A stretch of DNA of 61,646 nucleotides from Candidatus Zambryskibacteria bacterium RIFCSPLOWO2_01_FULL_39_39 (lineage in GTDB: Bacteria > Patescibacteriota > Minisyncoccia > Phycocordibacterales > WO2-35-19), in the NCBI GenBank assembly GCA_001823925.1, contig MHWB01000010.1, positions 1-61,646 of the forward strand, read 5' to 3'. The translations under genes and the position numbers were made by a program. A model generated the notes under the pieces. That model saw only the letters and a program-made list of their open reading frames with translations. It was not told the DNA's origin and searched no databases. The number at the start of each line of letters is the position of its first letter. The first letter of the stretch is position 1. Shown here piece by piece: positions 1-18,567 of this stretch.

Positions 1-86
1 CGCTTTTTTAATTTGGGTTAATGTTCGTTTCTGCATATTATTTTTGTCCAAAACCCTTATTTTGCTTAGGTTCAAACTTGGACATC

Positions 87-176
87 TGGCGGAGGAGGTG
101 AGATTTGAACTCACGATACCATTTCAGGTATGCCGGTTTTCGAAACCGGTGCCTTCAACCACTCAGCCACTCCTCC
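87..176 (-). tRNA. tRNA-Ser (anticodon CGA)
   Basis: The reverse complement folds as a class II tRNA. Acceptor GGAGGAG/CTCCTCC, anticodon arm CCGGT-TTCGAAA-ACCGG, long variable arm, T-loop GTTCAAATC, encoded CCA. Confidence 0.9.
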
Positions 177-197
177 ATAAATTTCGCTTCGCTCAAA

Positions 198-296
198 TGG
201 AGGCCGCTTCGCGGAAAGTGGCTTCTTGTTTGCCACCTCGCTTTGCTCGGATGAAAAGCAAAGCAGTTTGCTTTTCATCCACTCAGCCACTCCTCC
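198..296 (-). other. tRNA-Ser 5' fragment fused to a three-hairpin tRNA-like element
   Basis: The first 18 nt are identical to the tRNA-Ser 5' end (GGAGGAGTGGCTGAGTGG). Three hairpins follow: a 14-bp stem at 249-280, GTGGC/GCCAC, and CCGC-GAA-GCGG. The ends pair as GGAGG/CCTCC. It is not a canonical cloverleaf. Confidence 0.45.
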
Positions 297-467
297 ATTG
301 GACCGCCAAAGCTTTAGCAAAGGCGACCATATTTCGCTTCGCTAGTTTAACATTTTTTGTACATTTTATCAAAAAATGTTATTATACGTTTTCCTTTTTC
401 TCTTTTCTGAATTTTTAGAAATTAGAAATTAGGTTAATTATAAATTTAAATTGCCCCGCAATTTTAC

Positions 468-539
468 GGCCCCATCGTCTATCGGTTAGGACACTGCCTT
501 TTCAAGGCAGGAAGCGCGGTTCGATTCCGCGTGGGGTCA
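468..539 (+). tRNA. tRNA-Glu (anticodon UUC)
   Basis: Acceptor GGCCCCA/TGGGGTC, anticodon arm CTGCC-TTTTCAA-GGCAG, T-arm CGCGG-TTCGATT-CCGCG. No encoded CCA. Confidence 0.9.
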
Positions 540-730
540 TGGATTACAAAAATGAGCTTCGGTCTTTGATCAAAGCCATTTTTGTCCATAACCCCAAAGA
601 AAGCAAACAGTTTTGCTTTCGTCGTGGAATCGAACGGCGGAGTATAAAATTTTTAGCAAAAAATTTTTCGAGCCGGTGCCCAGACCAAAAATTTGTGGCT
701 GACAAATTTTTGAGTCGAGGGAGATATCCC

Positions 731-745
731 TTCCGCGTGGGGTCA
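731..745 (+). repeat. 15-bp direct copy of the tRNA-Glu 3' end (att-like)
   Basis: TTCCGCGTGGGGTCA is identical to 525-539 (T-stem 3' half, acceptor 3' strand and discriminator). Confidence 0.7.
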
Positions 746-989
746 CAAAACGTGGGTTCAAGAAAAGCAGACTGCTCTGCTTTTCTTCGTTTTGTGAAGA
801 CGGAAACATGTTTTTCTAGTAAGAAAAACAGTTGAGTCCGGGGCTGGAAATTTCATTTTAGACGAAAAATGAAATATTGTGGCTCATTCATCATAAGCCG
901 GAGTCGCGAGTACTTACGTATTTTGCGAATACTTAGAGCAAAATACGTAGTAACTTGTGACACAATAAAATCATTTTAATTTTTTGACA

Positions 990-1016
990 CGAAAAAGCCC
1001 GATCTGAAGAACGGGC
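990..1016 (-). terminator. intrinsic terminator of the small Cys-rich gene
   Basis: Minus strand reads GCCCG-TTCTTCAGAT-CGGGC followed by TTTTTCG. Confidence 0.6.
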
Positions 1017-1037
1017 TTGAACGGAATGATCACCCCC

Positions 1038-1286
1038 CTATTCATCAGGCACACGGCCGACAATAATCTCTGGAGCAGAGCAGAATCGACTATACTCAAA
1101 ATTGTTTGGATTGCTCGTAATAGCATGGCGTTCCGAGGCAATCTTTTTAGCTTCCGTAACTCCACTCGCTGGCATTATTGTCTGAAAACGACAACTGATA
1201 TTGTTGCAAATCGCAATTCAATTGCCGGGACAGCATCCAGCTTCCTTTACTGTAAAAAGAGTGAAAACGATATCAGATTTTTCCAT
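1038..1286 (-). pseudogene. small Cys-rich protein, paralog of 45164..45415, with in-frame TGA at codon 23
   Basis: Hand translation: MEKSDIVFTLFTVKEAGCCPGN*IAICNNISCRFQTIMPASGVTEAKKIASERHAITSNPNNFEYSRFCSAPEIIVGRVPDE. It aligns end to end with the 83-aa ORF at 45164..45415. GAAAGGA lies 7 nt upstream of the ATG. Confidence 0.6.
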
Positions 1287-1391
1287 AAGTGATTCCTTTC
1301 TGTTTTTATGAAATCATATTTATATTGATTCGTCAATTTGCAATTTTCTTTATAATAATGTTAAATTCTGTTCCAGAAAGGAAGGTGTACA

Positions 1392-1601
1392 TTGCCATTG
1401 ATCAGTATGCATAACCACCCACTTGCAAAAACCCTGTGTGATTGCACAAAACACACCGAGACGAGACAAGCTGGCGTAAAAGCAGGTGAAATCGCTCGTG
1501 AGATTGTAGCTGCGGAAGCGGCTGGCGACCATCAAAAAGCCACAGATCTTCTTCCTGAACTGGAAAGGCTTAACGCAATCGCAAATCAGGAGATCAAGTA
1601 A
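1392..1601 (+). CDS. hypothetical small protein (69 aa; start could instead be the ATG at 1407)
   Basis: ORF track. AGGAAGG precedes the TTG start. It lies in a G+C-richer islet and its stop abuts the next ORF's start. Confidence 0.45.
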   Translation: MPLISMHNHPLAKTLCDCTKHTETRQAGVKAGEIAREIVAAEAAGDHQKATDLLPELERLNAIANQEIK

Positions 1602-1952
1602 ATGGAACAAACTTATTGGTTCATCCGCTTCAGTGTATTTTTCACTCTTGATCCTGATGAGGGATTAAACGAGATCAGAGGCAATGCTGTATTTACCCTG
1701 AAGTCGAAGTCGTTTCTGCCCGGCTCTATCATTTCAGACCTCCAAAACTTCTACAAAAGTGAGTTGGCGAAGAAGAGGAGGGTGATGAAAGAAATTGAAG
1801 TCTACATCGACTCTGTTTTAGAGGTAGATCAGGATGGGGCAACCGATTTTTCGATGATCGGACTTCTTACTAGAGAATCGGTGCTTAATCGCACAATCGT
1901 GTCACGGCACTTTTTCCAGAAGACGAAGATTGTCTTCGCTCCGTCTCACTAG
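1602..1952 (+). CDS. hypothetical protein (116 aa)
   Basis: ORF track. TAA-ATG junction with the upstream ORF, followed by an intrinsic terminator. Confidence 0.5.
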   Translation: MEQTYWFIRFSVFFTLDPDEGLNEIRGNAVFTLKSKSFLPGSIISDLQNFYKSELAKKRRVMKEIEVYIDSVLEVDQDGATDFSMIGLLTRESVLNRTIVSRHFFQKTKIVFAPSH

Positions 1953-1976
1953 GGGGAATATGCTCGACTTCAGTCC

Positions 1977-2016
1977 AGCCGTCTGCGTTGACTCGTGGAC
2001 GGCTTTCTTTTTCTTC
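1977..2016 (+). terminator. intrinsic terminator
   Basis: AGCCGTC ... GACGGCT stem followed by TTCTTTTTCTTC. Confidence 0.6.
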
Positions 2017-2142
2017 AAAATTAAACTAGACTAGCATCGGAAGGAGTACCTGCAGGATTAACCACGATGCTATCAATGCTATCGTGAACATGAAGCTTGA
2101 ACTCGATGGCCTTTATGGTCTTTGGGCGGAAGGAAAAATCGG

Positions 2143-2391
2143 ATGACACTGGAACAACAGAGAGATCACATCCGACAACTTGCTCGAAGCAAGTGTCAGA
2201 GGAAACATCCGGATCTTTTCGACAAAATGATCTGTGTCGGTCCCGGAAGCGAGAAAGGTTTCGGTCCGCCGTGTGATGAATGCCTGGCCGAGACCGAACG
2301 AAAATACAAAGCCAAACGAGCCGAAGCTCACGGTCGAGAACTTTCTCCAAAAGAAGCGACCGAGGTCAGGAAAAGGCTCGGCCTAAAATGA
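2143..2391 (+). CDS. hypothetical basic protein (82 aa)
   Basis: ATG at 2143 is preceded by GGAAGGA, and a terminator follows. The track's TTG start at 2122 is less likely. Confidence 0.5.
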   Translation: MTLEQQRDHIRQLARSKCQRKHPDLFDKMICVGPGSEKGFGPPCDECLAETERKYKAKRAEAHGRELSPKEATEVRKRLGLK

Positions 2392-2410
2392 AGCACACCT
2401 ATATCAGACA

Positions 2411-2444
2411 GCCCACGGCTCACCCCGTGCGGCTTTCTTTTTGG
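2411..2444 (+). terminator. intrinsic terminator
   Basis: GCCCACGG ... CCGTGCGGC imperfect stem followed by TTTCTTTTT. Confidence 0.5.
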
Positions 2445-2470
2445 TCAATTTTTGATTAAACTGGTCTTAA

Positions 2471-3466
2471 ATGCATAGATTAAATAACAAAGGAGATAGT
2501 AAAACTGCTACCCAAGCCATTATCCTTAGAGATGGGAAGGTTCTTTGTGGATTAAGGAACTATACAGACGATAAATATAAAAATATATCAGTTTGGACTT
2601 GTCCTGGCGGGAGGTGTGATGAAGGAGAAACTATAGAGCAAACTCTCAAAAGAGAAACCGAAGAAGAAGTTGGGATAAATGACCTAAAGATTGAAAAATT
2701 TCTAGGAGAAGTAAAGGGTGTTTATAAAGACGATAAGGTTTTGGTTTATCTTTGTTCCAGCAAGCAAGAAGCTAAGTTAATGGAACCAGAGAAATTCAGT
2801 GAATGGAAGTGGTTCAATCCTGAAGAAATACCTGAAAATTATATCAACGAAGAAGTTAGAAGGCTGATAAGGCTTGAAAATATGATAAATTTAGCAACTT
2901 CAAGGATGTCTTCTGCCTACTTTTCTTATTTCGTTTGGAAATATATAGAATCTTCAAGAAATACAAATGAAGCTGGGGCTGAGAAAGCAAATCGTTTTGT
3001 CTCTATTATGGGTAAATATGGATATACTTTTCATAGTATCCTTAGAGGGAGTTTTTATGTATTTGTAATAGATTTGTCCATATTTTTTGATAAACAAAAT
3101 CCATCTTTAAATTTAAAGAAAATCATTGATTTATTAAATCCTTCTGAGGAAGACTTAAAAGAAATAAACAAACTTATAGATTCTCAACGGGCTAATATTA
3201 AATATCTAAAGGATGTTAGGGATAAAACCATAGCCCACCTTGATTTGAATGTAGACCGAAGCACTTTCAACAGCATAATCTTTAAAGATACCGAAGAATT
3301 ATTTGATGCTGTTCAAAAAATATTAAACATAATAACTAGAACCTTTAATAGCTCTCCCTGGATGTGGGACATAGCAGAGAATGAAGTAAAGCATAGTATG
3401 TCTTGGTTTATTGAAAACCTTGAAAGAGGAGAGTCAAAAAGGATACAAGATATAAATGCTACATAG
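2471..3466 (+). CDS. NUDIX hydrolase domain fused to a C-terminal HEPN-like (AbiU2-like) domain
   Basis: Nudix box GGRCDEGETIEQTLKRETEEEVGI lies in the N-terminal ~135 aa. The C-terminal ~190 aa looks helical and carries RDKTIAH, which fits the HEPN Rx4-6H motif. Confidence 0.6.
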   Translation: MHRLNNKGDSKTATQAIILRDGKVLCGLRNYTDDKYKNISVWTCPGGRCDEGETIEQTLKRETEEEVGINDLKIEKFLGEVKGVYKDDKVLVYLCSSKQEAKLMEPEKFSEWKWFNPEEIPENYINEEVRRLIRLENMINLATSRMSSAYFSYFVWKYIESSRNTNEAGAEKANRFVSIMGKYGYTFHSILRGSFYVFVIDLSIFFDKQNPSLNLKKIIDLLNPSEEDLKEINKLIDSQRANIKYLKDVRDKTIAHLDLNVDRSTFNSIIFKDTEELFDAVQKILNIITRTFNSSPWMWDIAENEVKHSMSWFIENLERGESKRIQDINAT

Positions 3467-3629
3467 TTCTAATACCAAGAGGTAGTTAATATTTTAAGGA
3501 AAATGCTTATTAACAAACCTTTTCTTTAGCTGCTATAATGTCTTTACCAAGTTGGTGCCAGCCGTTTAGCTCATAAACTAATTGGTTCCAATTCAACGCC
3601 CCTTGGGTCACAACTTTTCATACTCATCA

Positions 3630-3746
3630 TCAACAATAGATCTGTTTAGGTTTGGATTTTTTACGCTTGGAAATTAAAGTCTTTGTCCCGTCTGGACTAA
3701 GAACCACCATGCAACACCCCACATATACTTTATTATTTTCAGACAT
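3630..3746 (-). pseudogene. possible decayed NUDIX gene remnant (38 codons, then stops)
   Basis: MSENNKVYVGCCMVVLSPDGTKTLISKRKKSKPKQIYC* resembles a Nudix N-terminal beta-strand region. It is driven by the same promoter/RBS module as the 4834 gene. Confidence 0.25.
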
Positions 3747-3782
3747 ACCCCCAGTTTAATTAAATTTTAGATAAAAAGAAAG
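3744..3782. repeat. duplicated terminator-tail/promoter/RBS/ATG module, copy 1
   Basis: CATACCCCCAGTTTAATTAAATTTTAGATAAAAAGAAAG is nearly identical to 4832-4871. Confidence 0.8.
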
Positions 3783-3848
3783 TATCAAAAACGGAGCAGG
3801 ATTGAGACCCACTCCGTGCTATGCAAATGCTTAGAGATAATCTGGAGT

Positions 3849-4190
3849 TTATTGTCCTGGCACTACGCCAGAAGGCGCCATTCTCTCCTCTTGGGTCTTC
3901 CAGAACTTTCGCTTTCCACACTCGGGACAGACAAGGAAGACTCCGGGCAATTTCATTGCCTCTACAAGGAAACGTCTCAGTATTAAATACCCCTCCGGCG
4001 AATCGACATGAACTGTGTCGATCTCGTAGTGAGAGCACATCAGAATTATATTTGCGCCTTTTTGAAGCCAAATATTTGTCGTGTAAGCACCCTCATTAAA
4101 CGCCAGATGATTTTGGCCGACCAATTGGCGCAATTCTTTCATCTGACTTATCACAATCTCGGGCGAGCCGAGAATAACGATTTCTGTCAT
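3849..4190 (-). CDS. hypothetical protein with C-terminal CPxC zinc-ribbon-like motif (113 aa)
   Basis: ATG at 4190 is preceded by GGAAGGGG. The gene is G+C-richer than its surroundings and a terminator hairpin lies downstream. Confidence 0.55.
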   Translation of the reverse strand: MTEIVILGSPEIVISQMKELRQLVGQNHLAFNEGAYTTNIWLQKGANIILMCSHYEIDTVHVDSPEGYLILRRFLVEAMKLPGVFLVCPECGKRKFWKTQEERMAPSGVVPGQ

Positions 4191-4237
4191 ATTATCACCC
4201 CTTCCATTCCAAACTCTATACTCAATACAACTTTTTG

Positions 4238-4834
4238 TCAATCATTTTTGAATATCGATTTGGACATTTTTAAAACAGCATCTAGTAATGACTGCAGTTT
4301 TTTTATGCCATCGCTTCCACTAAAATGACCTTTGTTATTTTCGATAATAATTTCTGCTCCCAATTTTTCTTTAAAAATTTCTGAATCACTCATAGGAACC
4401 AAGGGGTCATCATCTGAAAATATGGCCGTAAATTTATTAGTGTGAGACTTAACTTTTATCCAATCTATAGGAATTTTTAGCCAAGGTTTTCCGATCTCTG
4501 CATCCTTCTCATCTTCAAACGCTTCATCGGTCAAATTTACCCAACCAGCCAGAAATACCGCTCCACCAATTTTTGTATTGTCAGGCAAAGTTTCCACGTA
4601 TCTTAAAATAGTCTGCGCCCCAATCGAATGACCTATTAAGTAAGTGTCTTGATCTGGAACGCCGATTTGGTTACTTAAAAATGGTACCCAAGTTTCAATT
4701 TGCGGATTTAGAGGATCGGGCATCGCTGGATTGAAAACCTGAAAACCCTTATCCTCAAGCTCCTTTTTTAACCAAGGAAAACAGCCTTCTTCGGGATAAC
4801 CGTCCCAACCATGAATTATAAAAACTCTTTTCAT
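4238..4834 (-). CDS. alpha/beta serine hydrolase (YdeN/RBBP9-like)
   Basis: IIHGW start, GHSIG nucleophile elbow, C-terminal D...GHF triad pattern. Confidence 0.7.
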   Translation of the reverse strand: MKRVFIIHGWDGYPEEGCFPWLKKELEDKGFQVFNPAMPDPLNPQIETWVPFLSNQIGVPDQDTYLIGHSIGAQTILRYVETLPDNTKIGGAVFLAGWVNLTDEAFEDEKDAEIGKPWLKIPIDWIKVKSHTNKFTAIFSDDDPLVPMSDSEIFKEKLGAEIIIENNKGHFSGSDGIKKLQSLLDAVLKMSKSIFKND

Positions 4835-4871
4835 ACCCCCCAGTTTAATTAAAATTTAGATAAAAAGAAAG
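4832..4871. repeat. duplicated terminator-tail/promoter/RBS/ATG module, copy 2
   Basis: CATACCCCCCAGTTTAATTAAAATTTAGATAAAAAGAAAG. It differs from copy 1 by one extra C and one A/T change. Confidence 0.8.
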
Positions 4872-4942
4872 GCCACTGGTTTCCCGGTGGTCTCAATTTG
4901 GCTTTCACCTCTTTTGGGTGTCACTCTTGTATACCTCCTGAA

Positions 4943-5302
4943 TTAGACTACGGGAGGATACATAGGGCTTCGAGGATTAAGACTGAAATCTACTTGTTTA
5001 ACAAATCCCGTTACGATCGCGAGAACAATCAGTTCGTCCGTAGTTTTTATACCAAGCCTCTTTCTTAATCTCTTAAGATGATATCTGGTCGTCTCCTCCG
5101 TAATCTTCATGGTAAGGGCTATCTCTTTGTAAGAGAGTCCCAAAGTTTTGAGTCGAAGAACTCTATTAAGTTGTGGAGGAAGTCTGTAGAGTTTTTCAAT
5201 CATCTCTTCAGTAACAAACCACCCCTCAATTAACCTTATGGCACGAACAGGAATAGGAATTTTTGGCCCTTTTAATTGACTTTTAAATCTAGGTATCGTC
5301 AT
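4943..5302 (-). CDS. LuxR/GerE-type HTH transcriptional regulator
   Basis: C-terminal LSYKEIALTMKITEETTRYHLKRLRKRLGIKT helix-turn-helix. The ATG at 5302 with an upstream GAGG is preferred over the track's GTG. Confidence 0.7.
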   Translation of the reverse strand: MTIPRFKSQLKGPKIPIPVRAIRLIEGWFVTEEMIEKLYRLPPQLNRVLRLKTLGLSYKEIALTMKITEETTRYHLKRLRKRLGIKTTDELIVLAIVTGFVKQVDFSLNPRSPMYPPVV

Positions 5303-5365
5303 GAAGTACCTCACTTTCCTCACCTATTATAACACCATAATTATAAAAAGAAAAGACAAGAAAAT

Positions 5366-7399
5366 TTAGATCTCCAGACCCAACTCTTGAGAAAAAAATG
5401 AAATAATTATCGCCTGATCTTCCACAATTTTAGAAATTGGTTTACCCGATCCGTGACCAGCCTGAATCTCAGTAAATAGTAGTATTCTATTTTTCTTATT
5501 TACGGATTGAAGAATAGCAGCCATTTTTCTGGAATGAAGCGGGTCTACTCGAGTATCTTTTTCTGCTGTAGTAAAAAGTGTCGCTGGATATTCTACGCCA
5601 CCTTTTACATTATGATATGGACTCCATTTTAGTATATTTTTTAATTCATCTTCTTTGGCAGGATCTCCATATTCATGCACCCAGCGTAAAGCCATACCAA
5701 ACTTGGAAAATCGCACCATATCAGTAAGTGGCACTCTTGAAACCACAGCATGAAAAAGGTCTGGTCTTTGCAGGGATACAGCAGATACTAACAAGCCCCC
5801 ATTACTACCGCCCAATATTCCTAATTTATTGGAAGTTGTATATTTTTCTTTGACTAAATATTCTGCCGCAGCAATAAAATCATCAAAAGAATTTTGTTTT
5901 TTTTCTTTGATACCACCCGTATGCCATTTTTTTCCAAATTCACCCCCTCCGCGTATATTTGCTATCACAAAAACTCCACCCCGTTCGATCCATGGAATCC
6001 AAGATCGCATAAAACCCGGGCTTTGGTTGTGGCCAAATCCTCCATATCCATAAAGAATTGCTGGATTTGCGCCATTTTGAACTAGTCCTTTTTTATGGAA
6101 AATAAATAAGGGTATTTTGGTTTTATCTCTAGATATGAACCATTCTTGTCTTACGACATAATCATCTTTATTTATAGGACTATCAATTCTTTTAAATTCG
6201 CCATAAGAATCTGCCACTGGATCATATCTATAAACTATTTTGGGGAAAGTGAAAGAAGTAACTCCATAGAAAAATTCTTTCTCTTTTCTTCTGGTTGTTA
6301 GACCAGCAGTACTAGAGTATTCAGGAAGAGGTATATCTCCTATTTTTTTACCAAAATAGTCAAATATTTCTACTTTTGAACAAGCATTTACCAAATATTC
6401 CACAAGAATTTTATCCTCAGTGCACCTTATGGATTCTAAAACATAAGATTTTTCCGATATAAATTCCTGCCAATCATCAATCGATTTAGGAAAATTATTT
6501 AAATCTGAACAAAGAATCCTATAATTATCCGCCTTGTAATTAGTTAAGGTTAAAAGTTTGTCTTTAAGAAATACGATGGAAAATTTAGCTTTTATATCTT
6601 TTATTAAAAGTGATAATTTCTCTAGATCTCGGTCATATATATAGACATCATTCTCTGTCCACTTTTGACCAACAGCGATACTCAAATATCTTCCATCTAC
6701 AGAAGAATTGATACTTATCATGTCATCTTTTGGCCTATTTTTGCCAAAAATTAATTTATCTTTTTTTGAATTCTCGCCCAATTTGTGGAAATAAACTTTT
6801 GGGTGAATATGTTCTTCGTTTTTTGACACAGTCCCAACTTCTGGATTTCTCTCATAAAAGAACCCAGAATCATCCGGCAACCACCGAACTTGGAAGCTAC
6901 GAGATCTTTCTATAATATCGTTTAGATTTTCTCCAGTATTCAAATCTTTTATATATAAAGTGCCCATTTCTTCTCCGCTTTTCGATAAAGCATACGCGAC
7001 ATATCTGCCACTTTCAGAATTGCTCCAAGAATCCAGACTTATTGTATTGTTCTCCTCCATCCCATTGGGATCAACTATTTTTATTGGCTTTCCATCTAGC
7101 CCATCTTTATAATATAAAACCATCTGATCTTCATCTGGCTGTCGTTCTTTATAAAAATACCTGTTATTAACCGGATAAGGATTGGTAAAATTTGTGAATT
7201 TAAAATCCTTTACAAGTTCTTCCAAAAAAATATTAAATCCTTTATCTTTTAGTTCTTTGTCTACTATTTCGTTCTGATATTTTATCCAATTCTTAGTCTC
7301 TTCTAAATCCGAATCTTCTAACCACCTGTAGTGGTCTGTAATTTCTACACCAGAAATATTCTCAACAATTTCTACTTTTTTTGTTTTAGGGTAATCCAT
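5366..7399 (-). CDS. prolyl oligopeptidase (S9A family)
   Basis: 677 aa with a beta-propeller-like N-terminal part. GGSNGGLL active-site serine, C-terminal D and H of the triad. Confidence 0.9.
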   Translation of the reverse strand: MDYPKTKKVEIVENISGVEITDHYRWLEDSDLEETKNWIKYQNEIVDKELKDKGFNIFLEELVKDFKFTNFTNPYPVNNRYFYKERQPDEDQMVLYYKDGLDGKPIKIVDPNGMEENNTISLDSWSNSESGRYVAYALSKSGEEMGTLYIKDLNTGENLNDIIERSRSFQVRWLPDDSGFFYERNPEVGTVSKNEEHIHPKVYFHKLGENSKKDKLIFGKNRPKDDMISINSSVDGRYLSIAVGQKWTENDVYIYDRDLEKLSLLIKDIKAKFSIVFLKDKLLTLTNYKADNYRILCSDLNNFPKSIDDWQEFISEKSYVLESIRCTEDKILVEYLVNACSKVEIFDYFGKKIGDIPLPEYSSTAGLTTRRKEKEFFYGVTSFTFPKIVYRYDPVADSYGEFKRIDSPINKDDYVVRQEWFISRDKTKIPLFIFHKKGLVQNGANPAILYGYGGFGHNQSPGFMRSWIPWIERGGVFVIANIRGGGEFGKKWHTGGIKEKKQNSFDDFIAAAEYLVKEKYTTSNKLGILGGSNGGLLVSAVSLQRPDLFHAVVSRVPLTDMVRFSKFGMALRWVHEYGDPAKEDELKNILKWSPYHNVKGGVEYPATLFTTAEKDTRVDPLHSRKMAAILQSVNKKNRILLFTEIQAGHGSGKPISKIVEDQAIIISFFSQELGLEI

Positions 7400-7500
7400 T
7401 TAGGAAGTTATTATATAGAAAAATAGGAACAAAATCAAAAAGAAAAATCCCGCCTTTCGTGTCTGAAAAGCGGGATTAAGGATATTTTCACACAACTTGT

Positions 7501-8091
7501 TTAATGAACTTTTCCGGTCTTTTGGTATTTTATCCAAATTGGTAACCATTCTGCCCTGAAAAGACCCATATCTATTAGATCCCAGCGTCTACCCCTTTTA
7601 AAAAAGTGTTTTTTTCTTCGGCCTTCAATCTTATATCCACAATGTAAACTGTATTGCAAACTACGTTTATTGAAAGCAATGACAGAGGAAGATATCTTGT
7701 AAAGACCGAGGGTATTAAAGGCATAATTTAGAAGTTGCATCTTAGCATCAGTCCCGTACCCTTTGCCCCAATAATCTTTCTCTCCAATAATTGCTCCTGT
7801 AGTGCCCACTCTGGCTACCCAGTCTATTTGGTGGATACCCATAATCCCGATAAGTTTATTGTCTTTGGTTTCGATACCAAGCACAATATTATTATTATCT
7901 GATCCAATTTTGCTATACCATTCTTCCTCTTGCTTTTCTGTTTGTGGAAACACAAAAGAAACTAAATCTCTGATCTCTTGATCATTAACCCACTGGGTAA
8001 TCAAAGAGACATCTTCTTTTGAGAAGGGTCGAAGATTCACTTTCTTACCTTTCAAGAAAACCACTTTCGACTTTTGATTGTTGTCAGACAT
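7501..8091 (-). CDS. GNAT N-acetyltransferase (RimJ/RimL-like)
   Basis: 196 aa. Its length and the WGKGYG-type acetyl-CoA pocket motif fit the family. Confidence 0.75.
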   Translation of the reverse strand: MSDNNQKSKVVFLKGKKVNLRPFSKEDVSLITQWVNDQEIRDLVSFVFPQTEKQEEEWYSKIGSDNNNIVLGIETKDNKLIGIMGIHQIDWVARVGTTGAIIGEKDYWGKGYGTDAKMQLLNYAFNTLGLYKISSSVIAFNKRSLQYSLHCGYKIEGRRKKHFFKRGRRWDLIDMGLFRAEWLPIWIKYQKTGKVH

Positions 8092-18072: not shown

Positions 18073-18567
18073 TTAATGTCTCTTCCATTCTCCTATTTTG
18101 CCCGTCTTCAAAACATTTTCAGCCATCGCTAGTTCGTCAAGGATTCCGTCTATCAATTCATATTTTTTTGCTTCCTCCAAACTAACCCATTCATATTTAT
18201 CAGCTTCTTCTTCTTGTAAAACAACTTCACCAGAAACATAATCAACTAGACAAGAAATAACCAAAGAGGGCATACCGTCGTCATCATGTATATTTGCTAA
18301 ACTGGTAACATATCTTACATTATCTATTTGAAGTCCAACCTCTTCTTTCACTTCTCTGGCCAGAGTTTTCTCCAGAACATTATACCAATAATGTTCTGTC
18401 TCTTTAGGATATGAAGTAAAATCAGAAGTCTCCATGTGACCACCCGGTACTGTCCACTTACCACCAAATCTTTTTTTCTGCATTGACCTGCGAGTAACGA
18501 GATACTTCCCGTCTTTTACGATTATGGCAGTAATAACTATTTCAAATGGTGTATATTTGCTTGCCAT
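18073..18567 (-). CDS. NUDIX hydrolase
   Basis: Nudix box GGHMET...LAREVKEEVGL. Confidence 0.85.
   Translation of the reverse strand: MASKYTPFEIVITAIIVKDGKYLVTRRSMQKKRFGGKWTVPGGHMETSDFTSYPKETEHYWYNVLEKTLAREVKEEVGLQIDNVRYVTSLANIHDDDGMPSLVISCLVDYVSGEVVLQEEEADKYEWVSLEEAKKYELIDGILDELAMAENVLKTGKIGEWKRH

Follow-up and report, generated by a model that had tools for sequence, protein, structure and literature searches.

CRISPR, toxin-antitoxin and abortive-infection systems use ribonucleases (RNases) of the HEPN type as central effectors, and the switch that turns these enzymes on is usually the interesting part. A 2013 survey of HEPN domains (Anantharaman et al., PMC3710099) records the AbiU2 family with an Rx4-6H motif and in Sel1-repeat and restriction-modification (R-M) operon contexts, and Nudix is unmentioned there. 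The literature searched on Nudix proteins in anti-phage defence describes them as separate effectors associated with reverse transcriptases or with CBASS, the phage-defence systems that signal through cyclic oligonucleotides, not joined to AbiU2. Here we describe a gene of the groundwater organism Candidatus Zambryskibacteria bacterium RIFCSPLOWO2_01_FULL_39_39 (Patescibacteriota, candidate phyla radiation) that encodes a Nudix domain followed in the same chain by an AbiU2-family HEPN domain. The gene lies near the left end of contig MHWB01000010.1, all 61,646 nt of which were analysed and are called the window below. An earlier interpretation of this DNA, made without database searches (the sequence-only reading), knew of no described NUDIX-AbiU2 architecture, and we likewise found no description of one in the searchable literature. 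Judged by its sequence, the protein is a new domain architecture within known families, from uncultured bacteria. The gene and its parts are as follows.

2471..3466, + strand: coding sequence (CDS) of the NUDIX-AbiU2 fusion, ATG start, 331 amino acids (aa) plus stop, from the list of open reading frames (ORFs)
2471..2866, + strand: Nudix hydrolase domain, aa 1-132 (Pfam, Foldseek, relatives)
2609..2677, + strand: Nudix box G47-x5-E53-x7-R61-E62-T63-x-E65-E66-x-G68-I69 (read from the translation)
2867..3463, + strand: AbiU2-family HEPN domain, aa 133-331, predicted all-helical (Pfam, AlphaFold2)
3089..3091, + strand: D207, conserved acidic residue after the predicted helix 184-206 and preceding the motif helix (D or E in 126/129 relatives)
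3218..3238, + strand: predicted RNase motif R250-D-K-T-I-A-H256 (Rx5H; conservation, position in the model)

The N-terminal half matched the Pfam family NUDIX (PF00293) over aa 16-132 (E=3.2e-19, 69.7 bits against a cut-off of 21.1), and the complete Nudix box claimed by the sequence-only reading is present at aa 46-69 (GGRCDEGETIEQTLKRETEEEVGI). Compared with the consensus GX5EX7REUXEEXGU, the box deviates only in T63 at the first U, and residues G47, E53, R61, E62, E65 and E66 are invariant in the eight closest Nudix relatives. Foldseek searches with the full-length AlphaFold2 model returned Nudix structures only, with probability 1.0 to NUDT15, BdRppH, NUDX1 and MutT and target TM-scores of 0.55-0.75, which fits the alpha/beta/alpha Nudix fold; BdRppH, the RppH of Bdellovibrio, ranked second at 26% identity. 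NCBIfam models for RppH matched below threshold, and the Nudix half reached no curated equivalog cut-off in that collection. A profile of this half detected more than 1,100 clusters at E<=1e-10, and the best 120 of them were nearly all standalone proteins of 135-150 aa, 50-64% identical to it and drawn from many Patescibacteria lineages. One such relative (L102 1394-4417) is found two genes downstream of RNase Y, where the gene order runs trigger factor-ClpP-RNase Y-HU; the proximity to RNase Y was not repeated in the second lineage checked, where the Nudix gene sits among small unknown ORFs. Together, these results suggest that the Nudix half is a catalytically intact pyrophosphohydrolase of the small MutT/RppH type.

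The C-terminal half matched the Pfam family HEPN_AbiU2 (PF18734) over aa 180-305 (E=9.7e-13, 48.5 bits against a cut-off of 26.8). The same model was matched by 42 of 46 relatives of this half, and other family representatives gave weak matches to HEPN_Apea and HEPN_STY4199. AlphaFold2 models were obtained for the full-length protein (pLDDT 88.3, pTM 0.79) and for the domain alone (pLDDT 90.8, pTM 0.86); for the former, an alignment of all homologs together misplaced Nudix-only proteins onto the AbiU2 domain and was discarded in favour of a correctly aligning subset. The segment LKDVRDKTIAHLDLN occupies aa 246-260 of the all-helical C-terminal half. When 129 diverse representatives were aligned, H256 (129/129) and R250 (127/129) were the two most conserved columns, and the family motif reads R-[DNH]-x3-A-H, with R in 98%, then D, N or H, A255 in 88% and H in 100% of the sequences. 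In the predicted model R250-H256 ends a helix (240-256) that is followed by a 14-residue loop (257-270) and a further helix (271-293), and D207 would correspond to the acidic residue on helix 2 of the HEPN definition (PMC3710099), with which the modelled position of the motif also agrees. We base the HEPN assignment on profile homology, the motif and its position, and not on fold superposition. The helix-prone C-terminus with an Rx4-6H motif proposed by the sequence-only reading is thus borne out by an all-helical model carrying R250-x5-H256. The consensus it had given for such families, R-[DN]-K-x-x-A-H, agrees with the pattern measured in the 129 relatives, and the search it had suggested with profile hidden Markov models (HMMs) of HEPN families gave PF18734 above threshold. 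The C-terminal half is predicted to be a metal-independent endoribonuclease of the AbiU2 family with an intact R-x5-H motif.

The single reading frame at 2471..3466, which the sequence-only reading had called with the same start and length, is encountered well beyond this contig. Independent assemblies of several studies supply at least 22 contigs that encode the identical 331-aa protein. Nine strain contigs compared by blastn matched the window over 13 kb with an identity of 99.8% or more, and the fusion gene was present in 9/9. A second lineage (Paceibacterota) encodes an ortholog with the same architecture and 78% aa identity on at least 24 contigs, which NCBI labels only as a 'NUDIX domain-containing protein'. 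The fusion genes of the two lineages share 76.7% nucleotide identity. Between them the ratio of nonsynonymous to synonymous differences (pN/pS) was 0.12 in the Nudix half and 0.19 in the AbiU2 half, with synonymous sites near saturation; this substitution pattern indicates that both halves are under purifying selection. A further protein, P0058, is a 161-aa fragment of a third fusion variant. Its Nudix box reads R-G-A where the window protein has R-E-T, so that one metal-binding glutamate is missing, and a second-lineage allele, P0207, diverges beyond residue ~237 and stops short of the R-x5-H motif. Each of these deviations could be an error or a natural inactivation.

The two halves differ sharply in how common they are. 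An exhaustive HMMER scan of 1.84 billion representative proteins with the C-terminal family detected 364 AbiU2-like proteins when the limit was E<=1e-3 and 146 when it was E<=1e-10. Of the best 150 family representatives nearly all are standalone proteins of 190-250 aa, as are almost all of ~50 close relatives identified by the C-terminal profile (206-222 aa), and among those 150 representatives the Nudix fusion forms one 50%-identity cluster only, with two full-length lineages. The junction, around residue 133-140, is where standalone Nudix proteins stop and standalone AbiU2 proteins start, and in the AlphaFold2 model it would be spanned by one continuous helix (aa 127-162) with no linker. 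Because the relatives on each side are standalone, the protein looks like a common 'household' Nudix joined end to end to the product of a rare AbiU2 gene, and at 16 loci of related Patescibacteria no AbiU2 domain was present. The best explanation is that the fusion arose recently, when a common Nudix gene was placed ahead of a rare standalone AbiU2-like gene. Other partners of the domain were also observed: ASCH in front of AbiU2 (P0066) or behind it (P0060), SET in front of it (P0093), an N-terminal GS...DxD segment with a sub-threshold match to nucleotidyltransferases (P0038, E=0.018) and a 260-aa N-terminus of no recognised family (P0074). None of the fusions of AbiU2 to ASCH, SET, the nucleotidyltransferase-like segment or the 260-aa region was described in the literature searched.

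The surroundings of the gene differ between the lineages. Similarity between the second lineage and the window is restricted to the CDS, and the flanks are unrelated. In the second lineage, three alternative left flanks converge 175 nt upstream of the start codon (junctions at the L097 insert against L098 ~9826, and at L101 333), and in one of them a 5.8-kb insert (L097 4046-9825) encodes a serine recombinase, an ABC transporter and a PrmA-like methyltransferase. Since the third flank variant has the same breakpoint, we regard this point as a recombination hot spot. Downstream in that lineage are an unrelated 127-aa gene, an HNH gene, rbfA and infB. A conserved downstream partner was considered and rejected, as the convergent 130-aa gene of the first lineage and the 127-aa gene of the second are unrelated. 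Of seven loci with standalone AbiU2 relatives, three lie in prophage-like or integrative-element settings, and none of the seven showed a conserved partner or an adjacent R-M or CRISPR system. At one of these loci (L094 7001-9114) a Ser_hydrolase gene lies two genes downstream of AbiU2, as in the window; at 31% identity this is probably coincidence, and it was set aside.

Two tRNA genes lie ~1.9 kb upstream of the fusion gene and are the only Rfam matches in 1-5400.

87-176, - strand: tRNA-Ser, whose 3' end (88/89) is a strain-variable junction
468-539, + strand: tRNA-Glu; 15 nt of its 3' end recur exactly at 731-745, and a T-arm-like fragment lies inverted at 623-639

The repeat pairs around them are 525-539/731-745 (206 bp apart), 515-531/623-639 (inverted) and 154-178/274-298 (25 nt of tRNA-Ser), and these fragments are possible scars of repeated integration at both tRNAs. 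G+C content is 43.4% in the small ORFs of 540-2470, 32.5% in the fusion gene and 37.9% in the window, and the small neighbouring ORFs matched no Pfam family or PADLOC defence model. The description of a tRNA-proximal patch with G+C-richer small genes in the sequence-only reading was accurate in both respects. In most strains a type II R-M pair (methyltransferase 2.8e-131, restriction enzyme 8.6e-28) and an HTH-Panacea gene lie to the left of tRNA-Ser; the R-M system ends ~2.4 kb upstream of the fusion gene, and the Panacea-type toxin-antitoxin candidate falls within 2.4-8 kb. One strain contig (L004, 2399-7530) instead carries a large serine recombinase, a 1086-aa SNF2/PbeA-like helicase and a 159-aa ORF, and aligns only from window position 89, so that its breakpoint is exactly at the 3' end of tRNA-Ser (blastn, 9 contigs). 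With the downstream peptidase as anchor, 185,579 species genomes were examined for synteny, and gene order was not conserved at 52-63% identity.

The R-M locus left of window position 1 (L001-L009, locus 1-7566) consists of a 621-aa LexA/S24-N6_N4 methyltransferase fusion and an MvaI/BcnI-type restriction enzyme. Some strains have a split or shortened methyltransferase and no called restriction gene. The HTH-SocA_Panacea gene and its 128-aa partner form a candidate PanA-type toxin-antitoxin pair.

A small repeated element is found immediately upstream of the fusion gene and at other positions nearby.

2414..2464, + strand: terminator-like hairpin (2414-2429) and T-tract, then the motif CTTTCTTTTT...ATTAAACTGG, ending 6 nt before the ATG
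2003-2032 (+), 2433-2464 (+), 3748-3782 (-) and 4837-4871 (-): copies of the local repeat, with an ATG a few nt later in 3/4
3630-3746, - strand: 38-aa ORF MSENNKVYVGCCMVVLSPDGTKTLISKRKK..., preceded by a repeat cassette
18073-18567, - strand: second Nudix gene, 164 aa, intact, unrelated (25% identical), adjoining a LemA-like gene

The motif that follows the hairpin is ~32 nt long, and the same arrangement of hairpin, motif and ATG precedes the Ser_hydrolase gene and the 38-aa ORF. Each repeat runs from a GC hairpin through CTTTCTTTTT and an AT-rich stretch to ATTAAACTGG(GGG); the copies at 3748-3782 and 4837-4871 are 97% identical over 35 nt, and four of the five matches to ATTAAACTRG in the 61.6-kb window lie within 2020-4849. 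The hairpin-motif element upstream of the fusion gene is probably its own promoter or 5' element, and the local repeat may serve several genes as a promoter or regulatory cassette, or may mark a cassette boundary. Given its own hairpin/T-tract terminator and motif cassette, the fusion gene looks monocistronic. Directly past it, at 3510-3539 (+), is a near-consensus sigma-70-like promoter (TTAACA-18-TATAAT with an upstream TG, 11/12) that has no + strand ORF ahead of it and is antisense to the 38-aa ORF and the 130-aa gene.

The sequence-only reading had also placed a decayed Nudix remnant beside the gene, and this claim found no support from tblastn, Pfam or a local Nudix HMM. By tblastn with the Nudix domain nothing adjacent was detected, and the only other Nudix in the window is the intact gene at 18073-18567 (-). 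The likeliest source of the claim is the 38-aa ORF, which by eye resembles the first strands of a Nudix fold. It gave no Pfam NUDIX match, frameshift read-through included, and its score against the local Nudix HMM (E=1.5, 2.3 bits), the top value of 257 non-self six-frame fragments, is at noise level. It may be the stump of a displaced gene.

The best explanation of this organization is that the fusion gene is an accessory, horizontally moving single-gene module of Patescibacteria. The sequence-only reading had proposed a single-gene module, and the gene does stand alone: it has a terminator and a promoter-like cassette to itself, and no partner is conserved beside it. It is likewise not in a conserved housekeeping setting, as its flanks are unrelated in the two lineages and both lie beside variable junctions with serine recombinases. 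With regard to defence islands the observations are mixed: the R-M system and toxin-antitoxin candidate lie near the gene in the first lineage, the second lineage offers an HNH gene and recombinases, and the settings of the standalone relatives vary.

For the function of the protein we prefer the reading, to which we give a rough probability of 0.45, that the HEPN domain of this accessory module is an RNA-cleaving effector in conflict or stress and that ligand hydrolysis by the Nudix domain sets its activity. One polypeptide would then hold two enzymes, a Nudix pyrophosphohydrolase followed by a HEPN endoribonuclease. The HEPN domain would dimerise to form its active site, like other HEPN domains, and would cleave RNA during attack by a phage or mobile element or under stress; the Nudix domain would bind and hydrolyse a nucleoside-diphosphate-X ligand and so set or reset the RNase activity. 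By analogy, the control logic would be that of CARF-HEPN proteins, in which a ligand-hydrolysing domain is fused to HEPN. What counts in favour of this reading is the combination of domains, motifs, selection, rarity, modular sister partners and solitary organization with the variable junctions, the R-M system ~2.4 kb upstream and the mobile settings of 3/7 standalone relatives. The proximity of AbiU2 to R-M operons is already on record (PMC3710099). In a more specific version, an active Nudix domain would read and destroy an infection-related nucleotide signal or an RNA 5' cap and gate the HEPN domain through the rigid shared helix, forming a single-polypeptide switch; we consider this version rather unlikely. 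From these lines of evidence we infer an RNase activity, a Nudix activity, their coupling and a role in defence or stress. Such a role is plausible, and the link to defence is circumstantial.

Several results weigh against the preferred reading. The sequence-only reading had called the gene a candidate abortive-infection effector, and the AbiU2-family domain was found, but the effector role was drawn mostly from the family name. In the lactococcal system AbiUi alone conferred modest resistance and the addition of AbiUii (AbiU2) lowered it (2026 lactococcal Abi review, PMC13064643), so that the name is not evidence for an abortive-infection effector. AbiU2 members occur on their own with no partner, and the HEPN domain is thus not obviously dependent on a control domain. 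PADLOC, a check that the sequence-only reading had suggested, recognised no defence system at the fusion gene. Its only strong match there, PDC-S07 (E=1.9e-15), was discarded as a generic Nudix signal, with the unrelated Nudix at 18073-18567 scoring 2.9e-15; the HEPN end of CARF_HEPN was matched weakly (E ~0.004) by 2/46 family members. The structural comparison envisaged at the outset gave the all-helical model, but Foldseek with the C-terminal domain found no HEPN match (best E=0.55 in the Protein Data Bank, PDB, and 0.07 in BFVD), all-helical folds being hard for this method, and no PDB sequence matched the C-terminal profile. Searches by tblastn of sequenced phages and plasmids returned no relatives, and three tiny SOLiD metatranscriptomes shared no words with the fusion gene. 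Four of the seven standalone relatives lie among assorted small and housekeeping genes, and the downstream neighbours of the fusion gene itself are ordinary genes. The Nudix half, at 50-64% identity to ordinary enzymes and with all catalytic residues kept, fits a plain enzyme equally well.

An alternative that is possible, if doubtful, is a two-headed RNA decay enzyme in which an RppH-like Nudix domain strips a pyrophosphate or NAD-type cap and the HEPN domain cuts the same RNA internally, in defence or in turnover. BdRppH as the second-ranked structural match (26% identity), the sub-threshold RppH matches in NCBIfam, the intact and strongly constrained Nudix catalytic residues and the standalone relative two genes from RNase Y would fit this, as would the sister fusions to ASCH, a domain linked to RNA binding and metabolism. 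Yet RppH matches the Nudix half no better than MutT, NUDT15 and NUDX1 do, no NCBIfam cut-off is reached, the RNase Y proximity was not repeated in the other lineage of standalone Nudix genes that was checked, and we know of no precedent for HEPN cleavage that depends on the status of the RNA 5' end, which also counts against it. Control by a nucleotide is slightly favoured over attack on the 5' end of the same RNA because ligand-handling N-terminal domains are the usual partners of HEPN, because a possible nucleotidyltransferase, the classical HEPN regulator, occupies the same position in a sister protein, and because the junction is modelled as a rigid helix. A housekeeping enzyme of reduced genomes, made of an ordinary Nudix copy and a benign RNA-processing RNase and free of any conflict role, would account for the fixation of the gene in 9/9 strain contigs under strong purifying selection, for the ordinary genes downstream, for the lack of an antitoxin or immunity partner among the neighbours, and for the membership of the Nudix half in a near-ubiquitous Patescibacteria clade with one member in a housekeeping stretch. 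This explanation is unlikely in view of the tiny and patchy AbiU2-like family (364 in 1.84 billion), the single 50%-identity cluster of fusions among the best 150 representatives, the 16 related loci that have no AbiU2 domain, and the unrelated flanks beside recombinase-bearing variable junctions in both lineages.

More improbable still is a protein that is simply a Nudix hydrolase, with a C-terminal half that serves as a helical extension for oligomerisation or binding and catalyses nothing. The bare NCBI name of the ortholog and the outcome of the Foldseek search, which found neither HEPN nor any other significant fold, are what this idea would predict; the Pfam match to AbiU2 above threshold and the weak HEPN_Apea and HEPN_STY4199 matches of other representatives speak against it, and an invariant H256 with R250 at 98% and the acidic residue at 97% is what one sees in an active site and not in a scaffold. 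Both the housekeeping and the non-catalytic explanations sit less easily with the patchy spread of the family and with conservation that resembles an active site. An assembly or gene-calling artefact that merged two adjacent genes is refuted for practical purposes: the ORF is uninterrupted and identical across independent assemblies from several studies, the architecture recurs at 76.7% nucleotide identity on at least 24 contigs of the second lineage and in a third-variant fragment, and pN/pS is low in both halves, so that the fusion is real.

If the Nudix domain is active, the protein would be a compact and testable case of nucleotide chemistry that controls, or cooperates with, an RNase. If the single-polypeptide switch were true, a Nudix domain would play the gating part in a logic like that of CARF-HEPN or RNase L, and neither a separate sensor nor a signal synthase would be involved. 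The AbiU2 family is without demonstrated function, and its fusions to Nudix, ASCH, SET and a possible nucleotidyltransferase are the first concrete hints of partners. The defence repertoire of Patescibacteria is barely explored and the hosts are unculturable, which makes a single-gene module that can be transferred to E. coli valuable. The practical limit is that the fusion is rare, being confined to a single 50%-identity cluster and two full-length lineages, and what it does is something that we infer.

Compared with described systems, the closest likeness is to AbiU2/AbiUii of Lactococcus lactis, with which the C-terminal 199 aa share the family model, the R-[DNH]-x3-A-H motif and a predicted all-helical structure. 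Unlike lactococcal AbiU2, the protein carries an N-terminal Nudix domain, and its host is a Patescibacterium and not the Firmicute plasmid setting of AbiU2. No neighbour gave a PADLOC defence match that would point to AbiUi; PADLOC cites the AbiU paper, and the presence of an AbiUi model in its library was not confirmed. With small Nudix enzymes of the MutT/RppH type (BdRppH, NUDT15, MutT) the protein shares the full box and the modelled fold, its nearest clade being standalone Patescibacteria proteins of 138-146 aa; it differs from them in that a HEPN domain continues the chain and no NCBIfam equivalog cut-off is reached.

Like HEPN-MNT toxin-antitoxin modules, the fusion would combine a HEPN RNase with a nucleotide-handling enzyme, and the sister protein P0038 has a possible minimal nucleotidyltransferase (MNT) in the same N-terminal position. 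Unlike them, its partner is a predicted pyrophosphohydrolase and is fused, and no nucleotidyltransferase gene is present among the neighbours in either lineage. The resemblance to CARF-HEPN proteins (Csm6/Csx1) is a works-like analogy only and concerns the proposed logic, in which an N-terminal domain that binds or degrades a ligand would control a C-terminal HEPN RNase; Csm6/Csx1 differ in that no CARF domain, CRISPR locus or signal synthase is present here. In contrast to the AbiJ-type entries of the 2013 survey, AbiU2 is recorded there only with Sel1 repeats and R-M operons, and without Nudix (PMC3710099). The likeness to AbiJ (NTD1-5) lies in the use of one HEPN core with alternative modules, which here are Nudix, ASCH, SET and possibly a nucleotidyltransferase.

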